64,000 bases of DNA from Dictyostelium discoideum (taxonomy: Eukaryota). Of this stretch, positions 10,336-27,214 are shown in pieces. A program made the position numbers and the translations under genes. The stretch spans positions 2,496,001 to 2,560,000 of the forward strand of contig CM000151.3 in NCBI GenBank assembly GCA_000004695.1. Reading direction: 5' to 3'. The notes beneath the pieces are model-generated. The model ran no database searches, was not told where the DNA came from, and worked only from the letters and a program-made list of their open reading frames with translations. Every line of letters begins with the position of its first letter. Position 1 is the stretch's first letter.

Positions 10336-10872
10336 AGTTGACCCAACCACATTGATTACTATTCATTCAGTGTAAAGTGGATGCAAGGACATGCACAACT
10401 AATACTAACATACAGTAGTATCACACAATATAAAGTTTAACCAGATTCTTTAGATTAGCTACTCAAAAATGAGCACATATAATGTGTATGATTTTTATTA
10501 TTATTATTTATTTGATATTAATTAATTATTTACTTGATCTAGATGTAGATATTTTAGTAATAATAGGTGTTAATTCGGATTTTTTTTAAATTTGTATTTC
10601 TGCATGCAATATTATGTGTGAGTTTCAAAAAAAAAAAAAAAAATAAAAAAAAAAAAAAAATAAATAAAATTTTAAAAACCTTAATAATATAATGTTAATA
10701 TATAAAAAAATGAAATTATAGATCAAATAAATAAATGTTATTCGTAAATAGTAAAAACTCAAATAAATTCCTACCAATTTAATGTGGTTGACCTCATTCT
10801 TTTTTTAATTTTATTTAACCTTATTAGGTAAATTTCAGGGAAATCTAGATATTTAAATGGATAAAAAGAATG

Positions 10873-10951
10873 TGAGAGATGCGGGGTTCGAACCCGCGAC
10901 CCCGGAGGATAGAGCCTAAATCTATTGTCTTAACCACTCGACCAATCTCCC
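10873..10951 (-). tRNA. tRNA-Leu (anticodon UAG), long variable arm
   Basis: Reverse complement folds: acceptor GGGAGAT/ATCTCTC (one G-U), D-arm GTC-GAGTGGTTAA-GAC, anticodon arm ATAGA-TTTAGGC-TCTAT (TAG), 11-nt variable arm, T-arm GCGGG-TTCGAAC-CCCGC, discriminator A. T5 terminator just downstream on its own strand. Confidence 0.75.
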
Positions 10952-10997: not shown

Positions 10998-11451
10998 AAA
11001 AAAAAAAAACCTGGAACCCAAGTTAATCAGAAAATTTCCAGATTTTTAACTTTTTAAAGAAAAATAAAAAAAATAGAAAGAAAATAAAATGAAAATCACA
11101 AACAACACCACAAATATTAAGCAACACAAATGCCTACAAAAAATAAGCGAAATTGTGGATAAAACTCAATTAAAAAAAAAACAATTCAAATACGTCATAA
11201 ACATCAATCACGAACCAGACGATAAAATAAAAAAAGATTTAGAAAAAAGTTTGGACAAAAAAGATGTTTTAATCAAAAGTAATAATACAATTCAAAATTC
11301 GAAACAAAAAAAAAAAAAAAAAAAAAAAGTAAACCAACCCCTCTTTTAGAGACCCTGTAAAAAAAAAAAAAAATAAAATAAAATGAGATCTAGCATCTCA
11401 AGGAGAAGCAAATAATAATTGCGTTATCCAATTCAAAAAAAAAAAAAAAAA
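10998..11451 (+). mobile_element. Severely 5'-truncated TRE5-A-like element (C-module region plus oligo(A) tails) inserted ~47 bp upstream of tRNA-Leu, 5' end facing the tRNA, flanked by a TSD CTGTGCATATGTTTAAAA
   Basis: TSD copies at 10982-10997 and 11456-11473, with a third copy of the same motif at 10952-10968. 11320-11450 is the reverse complement of 20168-20278. 11200-11290 matches the reverse complement of 1345-1430. ORF-track entry 11089-11349 lies inside this non-coding module. Confidence 0.65.
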
Positions 11452-13979: not shown

Positions 13980-14741
13980 TTATTCTAAAGCGGTGGCAAT
14001 GTAATCAGCTCTTAATGAATAGACTTTGTTTTCATTCCAAGTGTAGAAAACACAATCAAAACCTTTGGTGGTAATGTTTCTTGGTTGAACACCAATACGA
14101 GTTTGATTGGTAGCATCAGTACAATCGATTTGATCAAAGTTGAGGGCAACCTTTGGGAGAGTAGCAAATTCAAATTGGAATTTAACTGGGACAACAACTT
14201 CACGTTTACCTGAACCGGTATTTAAGGCACAGTTATCGCCAGTGTAAATATCTGCACCAACTTGAGTGACTGAGCTTTGTACTGGTTGAGTGTAGAATTC
14301 ACATCTTAATGAAATGTGGTTATTCCAGGTTAATGGGTGGATAGCAATTGAACGAGCTCTAATTGGAGTATCAAAGAAATGATTAACAACAGTGTTACGA
14401 TCAGTTACACCAGTAATAGCAGCACCATTACGATATTCAGACCAGGTAACATTATCTAATGAATAACGGATTTTGTATGATGTAACCCATTGATCATGAT
14501 CACCACGACCTTGGAGAGCAACACACATAAAAGTACGTGGAACTTCACAACCAGCAACAATGTATTGGTTAGTATCTACGATTGATGAACACCAAGCTTC
14601 TGAACCATCAATAGTATTGGTACCTTTGTTTTTATAGTTTAAAGCAGCATTAAATTGAGTGTGGACACCATTGTAATTGGTTGAGGTTCTTAAATGACAT
14701 TGAGCATTTCCGAGAAGTGTAACTAAACCTTGGGTAGACAT
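13980..14741 (-). CDS. Discoidin I (253 aa; N-terminal discoidin/F5-8 type C domain plus C-terminal H-type lectin domain), intact, intronless
   Basis: Protein [29 protein letters not shown]...[10 protein letters not shown] recognised as discoidin I from memory. Complete ATG..TAA. Confidence 0.9.
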
Positions 14742-15464: not shown

Positions 15465-16226
15465 TTATTCTAAAGCAGTAGCAATGTAATCAGCTCTTAA
15501 TGAATAGACTTTGTTAGCATTCCAAGTGTAGAAAACACAATCGAAACCTTTGGTGGTAATGTTTCTTGGTTGAACACCAATACGAGTTTGATTGGTAGCA
15601 TCAGTACAATCGATTTGATCAAAGTTGAGGGCAACCTTTGGGAGAGTAGCAAATTCAAATTGGAATTTAACTGGGACAACAACTTCACGTTTACCTGAAC
15701 CGGTATTTAAGGCACAGTTATCGCCAGTGTAAATATCTGCACCAACTTGAGTGACTGAGCTTTGTACTGGTTGAGTGTAGAATTCACATCTTAATGAAAT
15801 GTGGTTATTCCAGGTTAATGGGTGGATAGCAATTGAACGAGCTCTAATTGGAGTATCAAAGAAATGATTAACAACAGTGTTACGATCAGTTACACCAGTA
15901 ATAGCAGCACCATTACGATATTCAGACCAGGTAACATTATCTAATGAATAACGGATTTTGTATGATGTAACCCATTGATCATGATCACCACGACCTTGGA
16001 GAGCAACACACATAAAAGTACGTGGAACTTCACAACCAGCAACAATGTATTGGTTGGTATCTACGATTGATGAACACCAAGCTTCTGAACCATCAATAGT
16101 ATTGGTACCTTTGTTTTTATAGTTTAAAACAGCATTAAATTGAGTGTGGACATCATTGTAATTGGTTGAGGTTCTTAAATGACATTGAGCATTTGAGATA
16201 AGTTGAACTAAACCTTGGGTAGACAT
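15465..16226 (-). CDS. Discoidin I, second tandem copy (253 aa, 7 amino-acid differences from the first copy), intact
   Basis: Near-identical ORF 1485 bp upstream of the first. The 5' and 3' flanks are also conserved, so the duplication unit is ~1.5 kb. Confidence 0.9.
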
Positions 16227-17136: not shown

Positions 17137-17190
17137 TCGCTAGTTCGATTCTGAATAAATGAAATAGGAATCGAACTAGCGACATATTCT
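17137..17190. promoter_or_regulatory. Perfect 15-bp inverted repeat (TCGCTAGTTCGATTC / GAATCGAACTAGCGA, 16-bp spacer). Each arm contains an external B-box-like AGTTCGATTC, located 20-70 bp downstream of tRNAi-Met copy A
   Basis: Only the tRNA-proximal arm is shared with copy B (20709-20725). The distal arm is an extra inverted copy. Confidence 0.5.
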
Positions 17191-17580
17191 ATATAATTTT
17201 AAAATTTAGCTTCTCTAGGTTTCGATCCTAGGACCTCGAGGTTATGGGCCTCGCACTCTACCCCTGAGTTAAGAAGCTGTCGATTCAAGCTAACGAATCT
17301 TATGATTTTGTTGTAATAAAGTTACTCTATAAAATTAATACATATTAAATATGCATATTACATTACTAATTTTAGTTGACACACATTTAAATAATATAAT
17401 AATAATAATAATAATAATACTGTCAACTCATTATAAATAATATAAATACTAAAGAATAATTTTATAAACAATATTGAATATTAAATATAAACTAATATTA
17501 AATAAAGATAACAAAGTATTATTCAATTATATAATTATTAATTATATATATTTATAAAGCTAACAAGCTTTATTACATTT
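17163..17580 (-). repeat. Arm A of an inverted segmental duplication (~420 bp): tRNAi-Met gene plus 302 bp upstream flank and ~45 bp downstream flank
   Basis: Reverse complement of 20315-20730 with only a few mismatches. Confidence 0.85.
17207..17278 (-). tRNA. Initiator tRNA-Met (anticodon CAU), copy A
   Basis: Identical to copy B, see 20614-20685. Confidence 0.85.
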
Positions 17581-19854: not shown

Positions 19855-20152
19855 TTGGAAAAAAAGACAGCCATTATGGAATCGATATGGTACAGAAGAA
19901 ACCAAATAAAATTCAACGATAACACTACAATAATAACAGAGAACCAAATAATTCATAAAATCAAAAAAGCGAGAGATGCCGAATGGGATAGAACAAGAAA
20001 GATAGTAGAAAAGCAACTACGTCAAGAACTAAGATGCACTGATAACCGAGAGTCAATCAATAGGACCGCATCAATAAAAAGAAGACTCGAAAAATTCAGT
20101 CACAACTGGAAATCGAAACTCATGACCATAAACATCCCGGAACACTTCAGAC
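19855..20152 (+). mobile_element. TRE5-A-like ORF2 3'-terminal fragment. The upstream boundary is uncertain and may extend to ~19700. Interrupted at 20152 by a nested insertion
   Basis: Translation ESIWYRRNQIKFND...AEWDRTRKIVEKQL...RLEKFSHNWKS is TRE5 ORF2-like. The track start is a TTG, not a real start codon. Confidence 0.55.
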
Positions 20153-20280
20153 TTTTTTTTTTTTTTTGAATTGGATAACGCAATTATTTGCTTCTCCTTG
20201 AGATGCTAGATCTCATTTTATTTTATTTTTTTTTTACAGGGTCCCTAAAAGAGGGGTTGGTTTACCTTTTTTTTTTTTTA
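20153..20280 (-). mobile_element. Nested, minus-oriented insertion of a minimal TRE5-A 3' end (oligo(A), ~105-bp C-module, oligo(A)) flanked by a 13-bp TSD GAACACTTCAGAC
   Basis: TSD copies at 20140-20152 and 20281-20293. Inserted segment is the reverse complement of 11318-11451. Confidence 0.65.
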
Positions 20281-20613
20281 GAACACTTCAGACAACATTT
20301 AGTTATTTGATATGAAATGTAATAAAGCTTGTTAGCTTTATAAATATATAATTAATAATTATATAATTGAATAATACTTTGTTATCTTTATTTAATATTA
20401 GTTTATATTTATAATATTCAATATTGTTTATAAAATTATTCTTTAGTATTTATATTATTTATAATGAGTTGACAGTATTATTATTATTATTATTATATTA
20501 TTTAAATGTGTGTCAACTATAATTAGTAATGTAATATGCATATTTAATATCTATTAATTTTATAGAGTAACTTTATTACAGAAAAATCATAAGATTCGTT
20601 AGCTTGAATCGAC

Positions 20614-20685
20614 AGCTTCTTAACTCAGGGGTAGAGTGCGAGGCCCATAACCTCGAGGTCCTAGGATCGAAACCTAGAGAAGCTA
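20614..20685 (+). tRNA. Initiator tRNA-Met (anticodon CAU), copy B
   Basis: AGCTTCTTAACTCAGGGGTAGAGTGCGAGGCCCATAACCTCGAGGTCCTAGGATCGAAACCTAGAGAAGCTA. Perfect 7-bp acceptor stem. Anticodon loop CCCATAA has C33. T-loop GATCGAAAC has A54 and A60. These are eukaryotic initiator-specific features. Similar to human tRNAi-Met (GGCCCATAACC, AGGTC, GGATCGAAACC blocks). Confidence 0.85.
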
Positions 20686-20714
20686 AATTTTAAAATTATA
20701 CAGAATATGTCGCT

Positions 20715-20725
20715 AGTTCGATTCC
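20715..20725 (+). promoter_or_regulatory. External B-box (AGTTCGATTCC) 30-40 bp downstream of tRNAi-Met copy B
   Basis: Matches the B-box consensus GGTTCGANTCC at the position established for Dictyostelium ex-B boxes. Confidence 0.55.
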
Positions 20726-21023
20726 TATTTTAAAGAATTAAATTCCATATTGATTTAATTTTAAAAAAATTAAAAGCCTACAGTTGATCAAACGGATACT
20801 AGATACAGAAAAACATATCCATCAATCTAACATCAACTACATTCAATCTATCTACTCTACACACTAATTCCTTCAATCCTTGGATTGGGAATAAGAATAG
20901 ATCTGAATAAACGATAAAGAAAAAAAAAAATAAAAATAAAAATCAAAAATATTTTTATATAAACACATAATTAAAAAAAAAAAATAATAAAAATAATCTA
21001 AAAAAAAAAAAAAAAAAAAAAAA

Positions 21024-21800
21024 ATGAATTTTTTCGATAAACTTAAAGGTGAACTCAACTTAGGCGAAGAAGAGTTAAATAAAAAAACTATTCAAATAAG
21101 GTTATTCTACCCACATACCTTGGAATTAAATAGTAATTCAACAAAATTAATAGATAATTTCATAGTTAATGGTACTCTTAACATTGTCAGAAGACAAAAA
21201 GGTATAACAGTATTTGGTAGAATACTAAAAGAAAAATTCACATTATTACACGAGTGTTACAGCACTTTCAAGTATGAAGATTTCCCACTGCAAAAATTCA
21301 TACTTTACACCCCAGGATATCACTATGTCCACTTTTACACATTTACAAAAAACATAATAAAAAAAATAAACAATCAAATGGTAAAAGAAAACTGGGGATT
21401 GGAGCCATTACTAATAGATGAATGCAACATAGTAATGCTACCAGATGTGATTAGATATTCATGCATTCTATTATTTAACAAAGAAGATGATATCTCAATC
21501 ATTAAAACAAACATTGATGCTATAAAAGGTAGTAAGCATCCAATAAGAGCCTTCATCTCTGAATATAACAATAAAGAAATAAGAGATGTTAGAAAAAAAA
21601 AAAACACAAGTAATAAAAATCAACAACCAACAACTACAAATACAACTAAACCAATACCATCAACTCCACCAACAACTAATGCATCAACAACCACACCAAT
21701 AACAACCACACCAATAACAACCACACAAACAACAACCACACCAACAACAATCACACATCAATTACCAACAAGCAATACAACAATCAACAACCTAAACAAA

Positions 21801-21835
<35 letters not shown>

Positions 21836-21905
21836 AAAACCTATCAATAAAATTACTACAAGCAATGGTACCAAGTTTCCAATTGCCAGTAGTATTAGAA
21901 AATAA
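21024..21905 (+). CDS. TRE3 ORF1 (293 aa, Thr-rich C-terminus)
   Basis: First ORF of the element. Confidence 0.7.
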
Positions 21906-24640
21906 TGGAACAATTAAAATTATTACTATGGAACTGCAGAGGTAATCAATCAACCAACGCTAAGAATAAAACAGAAGAAACGATAAAAAGAATTGGCACT
22001 CAATTAACACTCCTAACTGAAACTAATTTCAATGGATTCAACCACCACAAAACAATGTTCAACTTTGAAAGAATAGATCATGGTTCAGGTAAAGGAACTG
22101 GCATAGCAATAGAAAATAGAGATACAAGAAAAGGCCACATATCAATAAACTTCAAAGACGATGATGGTAGAATACTATCAATTAAATACAATTCCTTTAA
22201 TTCTATCAACATATTATTGATCAATGCTCCAGCGACTATATCTGAAAGAAACACCTTCATAATCAACTCAAAATCACTGTTTAAAAAATATAATTCAATC
22301 AACCATCAAATAATAGCAGGCGACTTCAATAACAACCACGATTGCAACAGCTTCTTCGGTACTGAATTACGTAAAATAATAGACCAAGACATGCTACTAG
22401 ATACTGGTATTGAAGAAAACACTCCAACATTTCCAAGATCAATGAAGAGACTAGATAGAATCTACTGTCATCCAACACTACTAAACCAAAATTCAAAACT
22501 GGTAGTCCACAACACAGTATTCAACAAATCAGATCACTTTCCCATCACAATCACAATACAAACCAACAGAGAAACAACAACAACAACAACAACAACCAAA
22601 CTAGAAAGACTCCCTTGGACATTATGTAAAGAAATTCTCAACAACAAACATATACATGATGGGTTATCAGAATTAATCAGTAAGAACAAAGATAAGATCA
22701 AATCAGTGGAGGAATGGACGAAATTTAAAAATAATGTCATCAGAGATTATTTAAAAAAAGAACAAAACAAAATAAAGAAAGAAAAGAACAAAAGAAAATA
22801 CGTAATCCACAAATTACTTGGAAATAGTGATATCATTCCAAAGATGAGAAAAGAACTCAATGAAGAAATAAGTAGAATATTAGAAGAAGAAAGAAAGGTA
22901 AAAGCATGGGATATAAAATTAAAACTCCACCTGCATCAAGAAACACCAAGCAAATACCTCACAAGTATCCTTAAATCCAGAGCCAAAGATAAATCAATAT
23001 TCCAAATAAAAGATAAAGATAATAAGACCATATCAGATAAAGAGAACATAGCAAAAAGATTTGTTGAATTCTATCAAGATCAATATGAAGAGAAAGAAGA
23101 TAACGAAGAAACCCACAAGAAGTTATTAGAAAAATGGGAAGTAGACGTTGATTTAATCAAGAAACTCGAGATAGACAGACCGATAAGAATACATGAAGTG
23201 ACCAAAGCAATCAAAACTTCAAGTATCCACAAATCTCCAGGTTTAGACGGTATCAATGCACTATTCTACAAGTACCACATCAACTCAATAGCAAGAATAT
23301 TGACTATAGCTTTCAACGACCTCCTCACAAATAAGAAAGAAATCCCCACAAAATTCAAAGAAGGAGTAATAACAACAATATTCAAAAAAGGAGATGAACT
23401 AAACATTTCAAATAGAAGACCAATCACCCTTCTCAATACAGATTACAAAATTTTAAGCAAAATTCTCAACAGTAGATTATTAGATATCACCAGTAAAATT
23501 ATCAACAAATTTCAAAACGGCTTTGTTCCAAACAGGTTCATCCAAGACAATATTCAGATCATGAAGGAAGTAATAGAAATAAGTAACAAAAGAAAGAACA
23601 ATACACTCATTACCTTTTACGATTTTAACAAAGCATTCGATTCAATCAGCCACAAGAGTATCACAAGAACATTAGAGCATATTGGTATCCCCCCAAAATT
23701 CACAGCGATCCTACTAAACCTACTCAAAGATACTAAAAACAAAATAAAGATCAACGACTTTTTAGTCAATGGAATAACAATCAGAACAGGAACAAAACAA
23801 GGAGACCCAATATCACCAACAATCTTTGCTCTAGTTTTAGAACCACTTCTAATAGATATCATCAATGATAATACAATCAAAGGCTTCACTCTACCAAATT
23901 CCAAATCATTAAAACTCACTGCATTTGCTGACGACATAGCAACCTTTACAAACTCCACAGAAGAACTAATGAAAATTAATACTAAAATCCAAAAGTACTG
24001 CTCAGCAACGTCATCATCGTTAAACAAAGAGAAAACAGTAATGATAGCAATAGGAGATAAACCACACGATCTACCATTCCAAGAGAGTACAGTCCCAGAA
24101 AGATATCTTGGCCTCAATTTCACCAAAACAGGTTTAAATTCAAAATACAACACTTTAATCCAAGAAATGAAAAACAATCTAATCAAATGGAAATCACAAG
24201 CAATAACGATGAAGGCAAAGATGACAATTCTCAAAACATACGTTCTATCCAAATTAACATACCATCAATACATGGATAATCTAAATGAAGAACAAATTGA
24301 GGAAATCAATAACATGACCAGATGGTTCTTATTCTCCTCAGTTAAGAATACATATACAGAAGAGAGAAAATACAAAACTATGATGAAAATAGACAGAGCA
24401 TATGCAGATTGGAAAGAAGGAGGCATAAAATTATGGGATATAGAACTAAGACATATAGCATTCAAAATCTGGTACATGAACAGGCTACTCCATAACAACT
24501 ACAACAACAACAACAATACCTTACAAGAATGGTACATGGAGCAATTAAGTAGAAAAAAGCCCACACTTCAACCCTCAACGATATGTGCAGACACTGGGGT
24601 GTATTCAGAGTCAAATTTTACCAAAACCATCCAAAGATAA
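21905..24640 (+). CDS. TRE3 ORF2: apurinic/apyrimidinic-type endonuclease plus reverse transcriptase (911 aa to the first stop)
   Basis: EEP/APE-like N-terminus, RT motifs 1-7 including FADD at the YXDD position. Confidence 0.8.
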   Translation: MEQLKLLLWNCRGNQSTNAKNKTEETIKRIGTQLTLLTETNFNGFNHHKTMFNFERIDHGSGKGTGIAIENRDTRKGHISINFKDDDGRILSIKYNSFNSINILLINAPATISERNTFIINSKSLFKKYNSINHQIIAGDFNNNHDCNSFFGTELRKIIDQDMLLDTGIEENTPTFPRSMKRLDRIYCHPTLLNQNSKLVVHNTVFNKSDHFPITITIQTNRETTTTTTTTKLERLPWTLCKEILNNKHIHDGLSELISKNKDKIKSVEEWTKFKNNVIRDYLKKEQNKIKKEKNKRKYVIHKLLGNSDIIPKMRKELNEEISRILEEERKVKAWDIKLKLHLHQETPSKYLTSILKSRAKDKSIFQIKDKDNKTISDKENIAKRFVEFYQDQYEEKEDNEETHKKLLEKWEVDVDLIKKLEIDRPIRIHEVTKAIKTSSIHKSPGLDGINALFYKYHINSIARILTIAFNDLLTNKKEIPTKFKEGVITTIFKKGDELNISNRRPITLLNTDYKILSKILNSRLLDITSKIINKFQNGFVPNRFIQDNIQIMKEVIEISNKRKNNTLITFYDFNKAFDSISHKSITRTLEHIGIPPKFTAILLNLLKDTKNKIKINDFLVNGITIRTGTKQGDPISPTIFALVLEPLLIDIINDNTIKGFTLPNSKSLKLTAFADDIATFTNSTEELMKINTKIQKYCSATSSSLNKEKTVMIAIGDKPHDLPFQESTVPERYLGLNFTKTGLNSKYNTLIQEMKNNLIKWKSQAITMKAKMTILKTYVLSKLTYHQYMDNLNEEQIEEINNMTRWFLFSSVKNTYTEERKYKTMMKIDRAYADWKEGGIKLWDIELRHIAFKIWYMNRLLHNNYNNNNNTLQEWYMEQLSRKKPTLQPSTICADTGVYSESNFTKTIQR

Positions 24641-25350
24641 ATGAACTTCCAGACTGTATAAGAAACGACAATGATGAACCACTAAAACTGAAAGAAATTT
24701 ACGAACTCATGATCAAAGACAGACACCCAACACCAAGAAGAACAGAATGGCAGAAGTTATGGGCGGTGAGATACAACACAGCAATACCCAAAGTATTCAT
24801 AAACATCAACAGCATTTCTCACCAAAAAGGTAGAAACACCCTCTTCAGATTCTTCTCAAGATCACTTCCAGGTATCAACCACGAAAGAGACACCAGATGC
24901 AAGATCTGTGGCCACCTATTCAGAGACCCTTATTCTCACCTCTTCACTCTATGCCAAGATATCCTAGATATTGAAAAAACCATCATATCAACAGTTAACA
25001 AATTATCATTCATCAAAATCCAAAGATGGTCAATGGATACCTTAGACATATCAAAATACAACAGAACTGAGAGAATCTTCCCCAATCTCATAGGAATAAT
25101 AGCACACCAATTATGGAAGATAATCTGTCACAAATTGTTCAACACTGATGAAAGCAAACCAGAGCCAAAATTCGAGCAAAAGGTCATAGAAACAGAATTA
25201 CTAAATCTCATCGAAACTGAAAAATTCATCACACTAAAGAAAATCAAACACGACGAAGCAATACTAAAAAACACCAATCAAGATCTTCACAAATACAAAT
25301 TCAACAAAGCCTGGCAAACCCCAGCAGCTCCGAACCCTCTTCCAATTTAA
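24583..25350 (+). CDS. TRE3 ORF2 C-terminal Cys/His (zinc-finger-like) domain in a different frame from 21905-24640. Apparent frameshift within 24583-24640, so this copy may be defective or the shift is programmed or a sequencing error
   Basis: CKICGH...H...C motif typical of non-LTR ORF2 tails. Overlaps the end of the RT frame. Confidence 0.5.
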   Translation: MCRHWGVFRVKFYQNHPKINELPDCIRNDNDEPLKLKEIYELMIKDRHPTPRRTEWQKLWAVRYNTAIPKVFININSISHQKGRNTLFRFFSRSLPGINHERDTRCKICGHLFRDPYSHLFTLCQDILDIEKTIISTVNKLSFIKIQRWSMDTLDISKYNRTERIFPNLIGIIAHQLWKIICHKLFNTDESKPEPKFEQKVIETELLNLIETEKFITLKKIKHDEAILKNTNQDLHKYKFNKAWQTPAAPNPLPI

Positions 25351-25355
25351 GTAGT

Positions 25356-25430
<75 letters not shown>

Positions 25431-26302
25431 GTTTAAAAAATTTAATACAATTGAATAATAAAAATAAAACCGTTTAACAAACACCGCCGAAAAGACACAA
25501 GGACATTCCTTGAAGGTCTGATCACAGGTAAAAAAAAAAAAAAAAAAATATTGATTTAATTTTAAAACTGAAAAAAAAAATAACAATAAAAATAATAGTA
25601 TCTTTTTTTCAAAATGAATTTGAGGGATGTATCCTTAGCTCTTATTGTCTCTTCTCTTCTTTTGGATTTATTGATTGCCTAGATTCTTGGTCTTTGAATT
25701 CTATGTCTAATAGAGCTACAGAATTTGAGAAATTCGGTATGTGTAGGATTATAATCCTATAAATTACTGAATATTTGATTTAATAGTTAAAAAGTGATTA
25801 ATCAATATTAAAAAAAAAAAAATTATAATAAATGAAACATTTGAACATGTTACAATTGTTCCACCTTTTTTTCAAACTATTTAACAAAATTTACTTTTTT
25901 AATTTAATAAAATTGGTTTTGTTTATATTAAAAATAATTTTCCATCGATTTTTATTAAAAAAAAAAAAAAAAAAGAAAATCAAATTTTAAAACTAAAAAA
26001 AAAATATTATTTTTTAATTAAAATTTATTTTTAATATTGGTAAAGTCACCAGGGACTTGTTTTAAAATAATTAAAAATTTAGGATAATTTAAATAATAAT
26101 ATTTTAAAATTTTAATTTTAATATATTAATTTTTTTTTTTTAAAATTTTCTCTAGATATTTTTTTTTTTTTTTTTTTTTTTGATATTTTGTGATATTTTT
26201 AGATATTTTAGAATTTTTTTTTTGAAAAAAAAAAAAAAAAAAAAAACTATTTAAATCACACCCAAATTTTAATTATTTTTATTTTTATACATATTTTAAA
26301 AA

Positions 26303-27214
26303 ATGAATAAAATGAATAATATTTTTTTAATAATATCAAGTATTATTTTATCTATTGTTATTTTCGTCAGTGGTGAATGTGCCATTGATTTCTCATCAGA
26401 GATTTCAGTTGGAATTTCAGATTCTCAATGGTCATGTTTAGCTAGTAATAATCAAAGAGTTATAATTCAAGTGTGGTCAGGAGGTGGTCAATATAATTCA
26501 AATATTTCATCTGTTGTATCGGCAGCAGAACAAGCTGGTTTCGATAATATTGATCTTTATGCATTTTTATGTAGTGAATGTGATGGTAATTATCCAGCAT
26601 CAAGTGCAATTCAAAGTTTAGTTTCTAGTTTAAAATCCGATGGTATCAATTTCAATATGTTATGGATTGATGTTGAACAATGTGATGGTTGTTGGGGAGC
26701 AGAGAGTGATAATGCCGATTATGTTCAAGAAGCTGTTGAAACTGCACAAGGTCTTGGTGTTCTAGTAGGTGTATACAGTAGTGAAGGAGAATGGCCACAA
26801 ACTGTTGGTAATTTATCAACTCTAAGTCAATATCCACTTTGGTATGCTCATTATGATGATAATCCATCTTTTTCCGATACCGCTTTTTATGAATTTGGTG
26901 GTTGGACTTCACCAGCAATGAAACAATATATTGGCAATACAAATCAATGTGGTGTTAGTGTTGATTTAGATTTTTATGGATCTGGTAGTGGTTGTTCAAC
27001 ATCCTCTGGTAGTGCATCTGGTAGTGCTTCTGGTAGTGCATCTGGTAGTGCATCTGGTAGTAATAGTGGAAGCAGTAATAGTGGAAGTAGTAATAGTGGA
27101 AGTAGTAATAGTGGAAGTAATAGTGGAAGTAGTAATAGTGGAAGTGGTAATAGTGGAAGTAGTAATAGTGGAAGTGCAAGTGGAAGTGGTACAGGAAGTG
27201 GATCATCCATTTAA
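26303..27214 (+). CDS. Secreted GH25-family (Chalaropsis-type) lysozyme/muramidase-like protein with Ser/Gly-rich C-terminal tail (303 aa)
   Basis: Signal peptide. Collinear blocks with GH25 enzymes: ISDSQWSC / IDVSHWQG, LWIDVEQC / LDIEHN, VGVYSSEGEW / VVIYTTASWW, LWYAHYD / FWVAHWG, VSVDLDFYGS / VSGDVDRNKFNG. Confidence 0.65.
   Translation: MNKMNNIFLIISSIILSIVIFVSGECAIDFSSEISVGISDSQWSCLASNNQRVIIQVWSGGGQYNSNISSVVSAAEQAGFDNIDLYAFLCSECDGNYPASSAIQSLVSSLKSDGINFNMLWIDVEQCDGCWGAESDNADYVQEAVETAQGLGVLVGVYSSEGEWPQTVGNLSTLSQYPLWYAHYDDNPSFSDTAFYEFGGWTSPAMKQYIGNTNQCGVSVDLDFYGSGSGCSTSSGSASGSASGSASGSASGSNSGSSNSGSSNSGSSNSGSNSGSSNSGSGNSGSSNSGSASGSGTGSGSSI

Follow-up and report, generated by a model that had tools for sequence, protein, structure and literature searches.

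The TRE3-type element that occupies nucleotides 20767 to 25547 of the analyzed window, a 64-kb stretch of Dictyostelium discoideum DNA, is best read as a recently inserted copy of an already known retrotransposon, now dead or crippled, in which ORF2 has lost an A; we put the probability of this reading at roughly 0.9. According to our sequence comparisons, the break in the ORF2 reading frame is a private one-base deletion in an A run, and neither a family trait nor a programmed frameshift.

The insertion target is a tRNA-Met(CAT) gene at 20614..20685 (+), predicted by ARAGORN and matched by the Rfam tRNA model at 57.7 bits, with an internal B box (GGATCGAAACC, 20664-20674, +) recognized by the B-box pattern. 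The same pattern identified a B-box-like motif, AGTTCGATTCC, at 20715..20725 (+), corresponding to the external B box (ex-B). It lies 30 bp past the 3′ end of tRNA-Met and 41 bp ahead of the insertion point, and it is kept at the orthologous tRNA-Met of both D. citrinum and a divergent D. discoideum strain (ACTFIR). [quoted passage not shown] Here, the insertion point (20766/20767) is located 81 bp beyond the 3′ end of tRNA-Met, within the TRE3 range, and both the tRNA gene and the element are carried on the plus strand; the first-pass annotation had given this distance, together with one of about 40 bp from the ex-B box, and both figures hold. The locus belongs to the discoidin I region of D. 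discoideum chromosome 2, where it adjoins one of two inverted tRNA-Met genes. The element is flanked by an exact 20-bp target-site duplication (TSD), ATATTGATTTAATTTTAAAA, whose 5′ copy spans 20747..20766 (+) and whose 3′ copy, directly after the terminal poly(A), spans 25548..25567 (+). As had been claimed from the sequence at first reading, the repeat is perfect and borders both element ends, and these are its only two exact occurrences in the 64-kb window, as expected for a TRE3 insertion. Dinucleotide-shuffled controls yielded a mean of 0.35 matches even when up to two mismatches were allowed, and the exact pair around the element is thus far beyond chance. The duplication is indeed longer than those of the two other measurable D. 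discoideum copies, the only ones available for comparison (n = 2), whose TSDs are 13 bp long and whose distances are 82 bp from tRNA-Pro and 85 bp from tRNA-Leu, both downstream.

The whole copy measures 4,781 bp (20767..25547, +) and was recognized by its nucleotide identity to other copies and by its domains. Its identity is 99.3% to one other copy (L001) and 98-99% to three more (L002, L006, and L007). Its 5′ UTR of 257 bp (20767..21023, +) reaches further in the 5′ direction than that of any other locus among the five examined, the starts of other copies corresponding to window positions 20807, 20908, and 21012. It is followed by an intact ORF1 of 293 aa (21024..21905, +), which is Thr/Pro-rich in its C-terminal part and returned no match in a Pfam search. 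The TAA stop codon of ORF1 overlaps the ATG that starts ORF2 (TAATG, 21903-21907), ORF2 being read in frame -1 with respect to ORF1, and this junction is unchanged in the four other copies; according to a review, ORF2 of TRE3-A needs a -1 frameshift (PMC5911963). The ORF2 part upstream of the lesion (21905..24558, +) contains an APE-type endonuclease (aa 8-211, ~21926-22537, +; Exo_endo_phos, E = 2.5e-9) and a reverse transcriptase (aa 494-738, ~23384-24118, +; RVT_1, E = 2.3e-36), so that the Pfam search recovered both domains on which the original element call depended. A search of the PDB with the endonuclease domain as a single sequence returned no match; a profile built from eight such domains was needed, and it matched human L1 endonuclease structures at E ~1e-13. 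The downstream part of ORF2, in the -1 frame (24559..25350, +; called mechanically as an open reading frame at 24583-25350), carries the Cys/His motif CKICGHLFRDPYSHLFTLC at 24898-24954 (+). The APE endonuclease, RT, and Cys/His tail of TRE3 are therefore all present, with the zinc finger placed out of frame in this copy by the private deletion.

Within the 3′ UTR, 63 nt of internal poly(A) (25359..25421, +) form a tract that all copies share at varying length; it is 34 nt long at L004, our designation for the corresponding locus of a second assembly, GCA_054883475.1. Between it and the terminal poly(A) lies a 108-nt 3′ module (25422..25529, +) that is 97-100% identical in L004, L006, and L007, while L002 is without 16 nt of it. 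The terminal poly(A) counts 18-19 A residues (25530..25547, or to 25548, +), the last A also serving as the opening base of the 3′ TSD. Two ORFs, UTRs on both sides, and a poly(A) end thus complete the TRE3 layout, and together with the APE-RT-zinc finger order, the TSD, the same-orientation insertion about 80 bp after a tRNA gene, and the 98-99% identical copies, they bear out the TRE3-type assignment proposed at first reading. Some candidate features were set aside: at 18.4 bits, where the cut-off is 27, a Pfam Forkhead match to the C-terminal ORF (E = 0.0024) was taken to be noise, and an antisense ORF at 23617-24252 (211 aa, TTG start) was a mechanical call without support. For ORF1, the GH25 gene beside the element (at 26303), and the 911-aa ORF2, exact-product look-ups returned no match, nor were the AX4 gene models P0024 and P0028 on record.

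The subfamily is most likely TRE3-A (formerly Tdd-3), a letter derived indirectly, from cluster abundance and the published consensus length. The related copies form clusters of 55, 14, and 13 members, with the window element in the largest, in parallel with published TRE3 copy numbers of 67, 43, and 29 (PMC5006619); the letter was inferred from this parallel. DDB_G0291686, which one paper names as a TRE3-B ORF2, did not appear in the cluster listings, and the DDB_G identifiers of the window's cluster were not found in the literature searched. With TRE3-A the element shares its two ORFs, the APE-RT-zinc finger ORF2, the -1 placement of ORF2 relative to ORF1, the poly(A) and TSD, the position 81 bp after a tRNA gene near an ex-B box in the same orientation, and a sequence 98-99% identical to those of the TRE3 cluster that is most abundant in D. 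discoideum genomes. A TRE3-B-like sister subfamily (P0005 cluster, DDB_G0269266) has the same domain order and an ORF2 of 1,147-1,149 aa (Logan members) that is continuous at the site of the break, but its protein identity to the window ORF2 is only 61%, which places the window copy outside it. The resemblance extends to human LINE-1, which has an APE-type endonuclease with YAP, GDFN, and SDH motifs, an RT, C-terminal Cys/His residues, a poly(A), and TSDs, typically of 7-20 bp. In contrast to LINE-1, TRE3 is directed to the region just downstream of tRNA genes, has an ORF1 without relationship to that of L1, and combines an internal poly(A) with the conserved 108-nt module in its 3′ UTR.

The first-pass annotation had located an ORF2 break within 24583-24640 and had described the RT and the Cys/His tail as lying in different frames. 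The frame difference stands, but the position does not: 24583-24640 is merely the overlap of two mechanically called ORFs (21905-24640 and 24583-25350), and the lesion itself is an A6 run at 24553..24558 (+), some 25-30 nt upstream. In the window, the codons read AGT AGA AAA AAG CCC, whereas intact copies carry A7 and read AGT AGA AAA AAA GCC. Because one A of the A7 run has been lost, the zinc-finger tail is out of frame, and the ORF2 frame as written extends to a stop codon at 24638-24640 with a 26-aa nonsense tail. When the two ORF2 parts are joined at the lesion, the resulting protein has 1,148 aa and shares 99.1-99.6% identity with intact ORF2 proteins. All four other DNA copies (L001, L002, L006, and L007) have A7, and the frame change is therefore absent from each of them; A6 is confined to the window and to its counterpart in the second assembly, L004. 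In D. discoideum and D. citrinum, no fewer than 12 gene models run uninterrupted through SRKKAHTSTLNDMCRHWG, and homologs at 87%, 74%, 62%, and 61% identity keep RT and zinc finger in one frame. The homologs of D. cf. discoideum and D. dimigraforme, as well as the 61% sister subfamily, are continuous across the site, and the length of the D. citrinum homolog (62%, 1,096 aa) agrees with that of continuous homologs. On the basis of these A7 copies, uninterrupted models, and relatives in other species and in the sister subfamily, we take the family state to be a single continuous ORF2 of about 1,147 aa comprising endonuclease, RT, and a Cys/His zinc-finger tail. The suggestion that the two-frame organization could be typical of the family or reflect programmed frameshifting thus fails on the comparison that the first-pass annotation itself had set as the criterion, while the option of a dead copy gains support from the private ORF2 frameshift.

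Since homopolymer runs are error-prone, the genome could in principle be A7 with an intact ORF2, the missing A being a homopolymer miscall or the product of a chimeric repeat assembly, and a sequencing error had been among the options raised at the outset. Starting from the discoidin I D-chain gene, we located the orthologous insertion in GCA_054883475.1, an independent D. discoideum assembly; it is A6 there as well, while differing elsewhere, which makes a one-off sequencing error unlikely. A homopolymer bias might be systematic and common to both assemblies, but L002, L006, and L007 are all A7 at the motif in GCA_054883475.1, arguing against a systematic undercall of A in that assembly. In favor of an artefact, six positions within the element differ between the two assemblies; five fall into 23728-24010, and at three of these five the window carries the L007 variant. 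This shows mosaicism of the repeat, either in one or both of the assemblies or at the locus itself. Yet both assemblies share about ten other variants private to the locus, Y107N and two in-frame insertions among them, and the sequence is thus locus-specific and not borrowed from other copies. Taken with the shared A6, this renders an assembly artefact highly improbable, and we retain the lost A as a genuine feature of the locus. The homolog search with the flanking GH25 gene returned solely the D. citrinum orthologue, at 85% identity.

The deletion leaves the heptamer A_AAA_AAG at 24553-24559 (the A6 run plus G24559), in X_XXY_YYZ register with ORF2, and a -1 ribosomal slip or polymerase stutter at this point would restore the wild-type ORF2 protein, so that some full-length product would be made. 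In its in-register heptamer and in the full-length product regained by a -1 shift (the same 1,148-aa protein described above), the site resembles programmed -1 frameshift sites such as dnaX A_AAA_AAG and retroviral gag-pol, and a move to the -1 frame at the transition from ORF1 to ORF2 has already been ascribed to the family (PMC5911963). It differs from such sites in its missing stimulator, its lack of conservation, and its origin by deletion in one copy. Folding of 24553-24680 revealed no stimulatory RNA structure (MFE -13.8 kcal/mol, z = +0.86; 167 of 200 shuffles folded at least as well), and the two-frame layout is not conserved, ORF2 being continuous in all four other DNA copies and in the at least 12 protein models. 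In eukaryotes, A_AAA_AAG is a weak shift site, which further disfavors efficient recoding. Moreover, any 1-nt deletion in an A run leaves a slippery run by construction, and the heptamer is therefore no evidence of design. A rescued protein would, in addition, still carry Y107N in its endonuclease. With neither a downstream RNA structure nor conservation behind the heptamer, programmed frameshifting is not supported, and we regard recoding of this copy as extremely unlikely. A related idea, that slippage or stuttering at the heptamer could regenerate wild-type ORF2 protein or A7 progeny and would make A-run lesions reversible, or ‘phase-variable’, is likewise very improbable. Homopolymer indels do recur in the family, L007 being one A short in an A12 run of ORF1, and recurrent A-run indels of this kind would fit a reversible-lesion reading.

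Apart from the lost A, codon 107 of ORF2 (22223..22225, +), within the I-Y-A-P endonuclease motif, is AAT (Asn) in the window and TAT (Tyr) in all other copies and homologs. Tyr107 is invariant in 14 homologs, down to 22% identity, and Asn was seen in the window copy only. The copy had been described as near full-length; both ORFs are present, but its 4,781 bp compare with a published TRE3-A consensus length of 5,229 bp (PMC5006619 Table 1), and judged by that length, about 450 bp of the 5′ UTR are probably missing. The window element thus departs from a retrotransposition-competent, full-length TRE3-A by the A6 frameshift that splits RT from zinc finger, by Y107N, and by this shorter length. 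Loss of function is inferred from sequence for both the Tyr-to-Asn change and the separation of the zinc-finger tail, and the frameshift, Tyr107Asn, and the probable 5′ UTR loss together point to a non-autonomous, decaying copy.

These lesions might alternatively have been inherited from a defective master element mobilized in trans, in which case A6 and Y107N would mark a non-autonomous sub-lineage. The perfect TSD and the ~99% identity to intact copies imply that little time has passed since insertion, and the locus has nevertheless gathered about ten private substitutions and three indels, some of which could pre-date the insertion. Against such a lineage, A6, Y107N, and the other private variants are missing from all four further DNA copies as well as from the 14 cluster-member proteins retrieved, and non-LTR elements generally show cis preference. 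We consider descent from a defective master quite unlikely and favor lesions private to this copy.

Neither D. citrinum (L003) nor the divergent D. discoideum strain ACTFIR (L005) carries the insertion at its orthologous tRNA-Met, and this absence, along with the perfect TSD, fits a relatively recent insertion. A search for the empty site in L003 and L005 found no single-copy 20-mer, the flank past the ex-B box being too diverged. We propose that target-primed reverse transcription would have placed the element about 80 bp beyond tRNA-Met in the same orientation, some 40 bp past the ex-B box, an event that would have produced the 20-bp TSD and the poly(A) tail. The A may have been lost through a reverse-transcription error at insertion or through later replication slippage.

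The importance of the locus beyond annotation is small, as it represents a defective TRE3 copy of an element already known. Gene models in which this ORF2 is divided between two proteins, one of 911 aa (or 1,180 aa) and another of 213-255 aa, are artefacts of a pseudogenized transposon. Being present in two D. discoideum assemblies and absent from the divergent strain and from D. citrinum, the insertion could serve as a presence/absence marker.

Annotation of the element at 20767-25547 (4,781 bp) revealed an anatomy that agrees throughout with published descriptions of TRE3. The 5′ UTR (257 bp, 20767-21023) is followed by ORF1 (21024-21905), which encodes 293 aa without a Pfam match, and by ORF2, which starts at 21905 in the −1 frame relative to ORF1 and encodes an endonuclease (Exo_endo_phos, aa 8-211) and a reverse transcriptase (RVT_1, aa 494-738). 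The 3′ end consists of an internal poly(A) (25359-25421), a conserved 3′ module of 108 nt (25422-25529), and a terminal poly(A) of 18-19 A (25530-25547). All testable defining features of TRE3 are present, and the TRE3-type assignment of the first-pass annotation was therefore correct, as was its expectation of endonuclease and reverse transcriptase homology; we infer the subfamily letter, A, from abundance. In profile comparisons, the endonuclease region matched solved human L1 endonuclease structures (E ~1e-13), with the YAP, GDFN, and SDH motifs aligned. ORF1 stop and ORF2 ATG share a TAATG overlap (21903-21907) that does not vary among the copies compared, and upstream of the ATG the ORF2 frame extends for just two open codons. 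A −1 frameshift has been invoked for TRE3-A ORF2 in the review literature (PMC5911963); the junction layout fits termination-reinitiation equally well. The internal poly(A) and 3′ module were also found in three further D. discoideum copies taken from assembly GCA_054883475.1 (L002, L006, and L007) and are therefore a family feature. The internal poly(A) varies in length among copies and measures 63 nt in the window versus 34 nt at the same locus of that assembly (L004), being either a hypervariable homopolymer or one poorly resolved by assemblers. Within the module, a 16-nt stretch, AGGACATTCCTTGAAG (window-equivalent 25500-25515), is common to the window, L004, L006, and L007, and is absent from L002 (L002 7425-7435).

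The element lies downstream of a + strand tRNA-Met(CAT) gene (20614-20685), on which ARAGORN and Rfam agree, with an internal B box, GGATCGAAACC (20664-20674), and a second B-box-like motif, the ex-B box AGTTCGATTCC, at 20715-20725. The 20-mer target-site duplication (TSD) ATATTGATTTAATTTTAAAA occurs exactly twice in the 64-kb window, at 20747-20766 and, directly after the 19-nt terminal A-run, at 25548-25567. This placement sets the insertion point 81 bp past the tRNA and 41 bp past the ex-B box, confirming both the perfect 20-bp TSD and the distances (81 and ~40 bp) proposed earlier. L002 lies 85 bp after a tRNA-Leu gene and L006 82 bp after a tRNA-Pro gene, each with a 13-bp TSD, and L007 is nested among other elements with no clear TSD. 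The target tRNA-Met gene sits in an inverted duplication of ~420 bp (arms 17162-17580 and 20315-20730, 96-98% identical), whose left arm contains a − strand tRNA-Met(CAT) gene (17207-17278) with the same ex-B box (17167-17177); TRE3 is inserted at the right-hand gene only, with 16 bp between the arm end and the TSD. Upstream of this gene, a ~130-bp segment (20153-20279) is repeated in inverted orientation with ~93% identity at 11315-11449, near a tRNA-Leu(TAG) gene (10872-10951), and may be what is left of another tRNA-associated repeat; the adjacent 104-aa ORF (19855-20169) has no Pfam match.

The window (~20% G+C) contains two tandem − strand discoidin I genes, C/B chain and D chain (13980-14741 and 15465-16226), whose proteins are identical to D. 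discoideum AX4 entries, thus placing it in the chromosome 2 discoidin I region. Each AX4 discoidin I protein has two accessions, which fits a locus within the duplicated part of AX4 chromosome 2. A single-exon GH25 ORF (26303-27214, 303 aa), with a lysozyme-type domain and a Gly/Ser-rich repeat tail, starts 736 bp 3′ of the downstream TSD copy. Its exact protein was not found in the protein collection, where the neighbouring discoidin proteins are present; the best match was the D. citrinum orthologue (85% identity), and a conspecific match may have been crowded out by the low-complexity tail, or the annotated gene model may be different. The insertion is missing at the orthologous tRNA-Met of D. 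citrinum (L003), which is separated from the GH25 gene by 665 bp, and is likewise missing in the divergent D. discoideum strain ACTFIR (L005, GCA_054859385.1). Both loci retain the tRNA and ex-B box, and the sequence past them has diverged, leaving no exact empty site to display. This absence, together with the perfect TSD and ~99% identity to intact copies, fits a fairly recent insertion.

The mechanical ORF2 ends at 24640; the Cys/His motif CKICGHLFRDPYSHLFTLC lies in the −1 frame, within an ORF of 255 aa (24583-25350). The frame break reported in the first-pass annotation is real, but the interval assigned to it, 24583-24640, is where these two ORFs overlap (58 nt) and lies ~25-30 nt too far downstream. 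The best protein homologue of the window ORF2 (P0001; 1,147 aa, 98% identical, representing a 55-member cluster) is uninterrupted across the break site (...EQLSRKKAHTSTLNDMCRHWG...), and tblastn located the frame switch at ~24553. Nucleotide alignment with the short Logan contig encoding P0001 (L001, 99.3% identity) revealed one relevant indel, AGTAG-AAAAAAGCCC in the window versus AGTAGAAAAAAAGCCC in L001. The lesion thus consists of a single lost A, which has turned an A7 run into A6 (24553-24558).

Comparison of the frame state in other TRE3 copies revealed A7 in L001, L002, L006, and L007. At least 12 gene models among the retrieved cluster members (from AX4, a second D. discoideum strain, and D. 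citrinum) are continuous through the junction, as is ORF2 in homologues from D. cf. discoideum (87% identity), D. dimigraforme (74%), and a sister subfamily (61%); a D. citrinum homologue (62% identity, 1,096 aa), compared by length alone, agrees. The family therefore has a single continuous ORF2, which, under the criterion set in the first-pass annotation, rules out a two-frame organization as a family trait. A one-off sequencing error is unlikely, since L004, which was reached via the adjacent discoidin I D-chain gene in an independent assembly, has the same insertion with the same A6, while six substitutions and both poly(A) lengths differ. These substitutions fall at 20998 and, for the other five, inside 283 bp (23728-24010). 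At 23787, 23944, and 24010 the window has the L007 variant and L004 that of L001, L002, and L006; the bases at 23728 and 23989 are private to L004. The difference at 23787 replaces Arg with Thr shortly before the RT motif GTKQGDP. This pattern suggests either that one assembly is chimeric in this repeat or that TRE3 copies have undergone gene conversion.

After the deletion, ORF2 reads A_AAA_AAG in X_XXY_YYZ register, and a −1 slip there would give a 1,148-aa product 99.1-99.6% identical to intact ORF2. However, any 1-nt loss in an A-run yields such a slippery run, the two-frame layout is not conserved in related copies, and the predicted fold of the 128 nt downstream is no more stable than those of shuffled sequences (z = +0.86). 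Programmed frameshifting thus lacks support, and among the three explanations originally offered for the break, a dead copy is the supported one.

In a column-by-column comparison of six sequences, about ten substitutions and three indels occurred at the window locus alone. One of these substitutions, T-to-A at 22223, makes residue 107, within the I-Y-A-P motif, Asn instead of Tyr. Tyr is invariant at this position (14/14 homologues examined, as distant as plant LINEs at 22% identity) and corresponds in the alignment to the Tyr in 'IYAPN' of the L1 endonuclease; in APE-family nucleases, this residue belongs to the active site. Background slippage at A_AAA_AAG may occur, and a protein rescued in this way would still carry Y107N. 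The Dd_TRE3-A consensus is 5,229 bp, with 67 copies, 13 of them full-length and intact (Spaller et al. 2016, PMC5006619); if TRE3-A, the window copy would be ~450 bp short, with the whole shortfall at the 5′ UTR. Truncation at the 5′ end is common in the set, other copies starting at window-equivalent 20807, 20908, and 21012. The window element is of a known kind, and this copy is an ordinary pseudogenised TRE3 member. In L007, the A12 run of ORF1 (window-equivalent 21593-21604) is one A short, and the gene model of this copy (P0025) bypasses the region by a predicted intron. Inactivation by homopolymer-A indels is thus recurrent among TRE3 copies, and such indels look like a routine mode of their decay.
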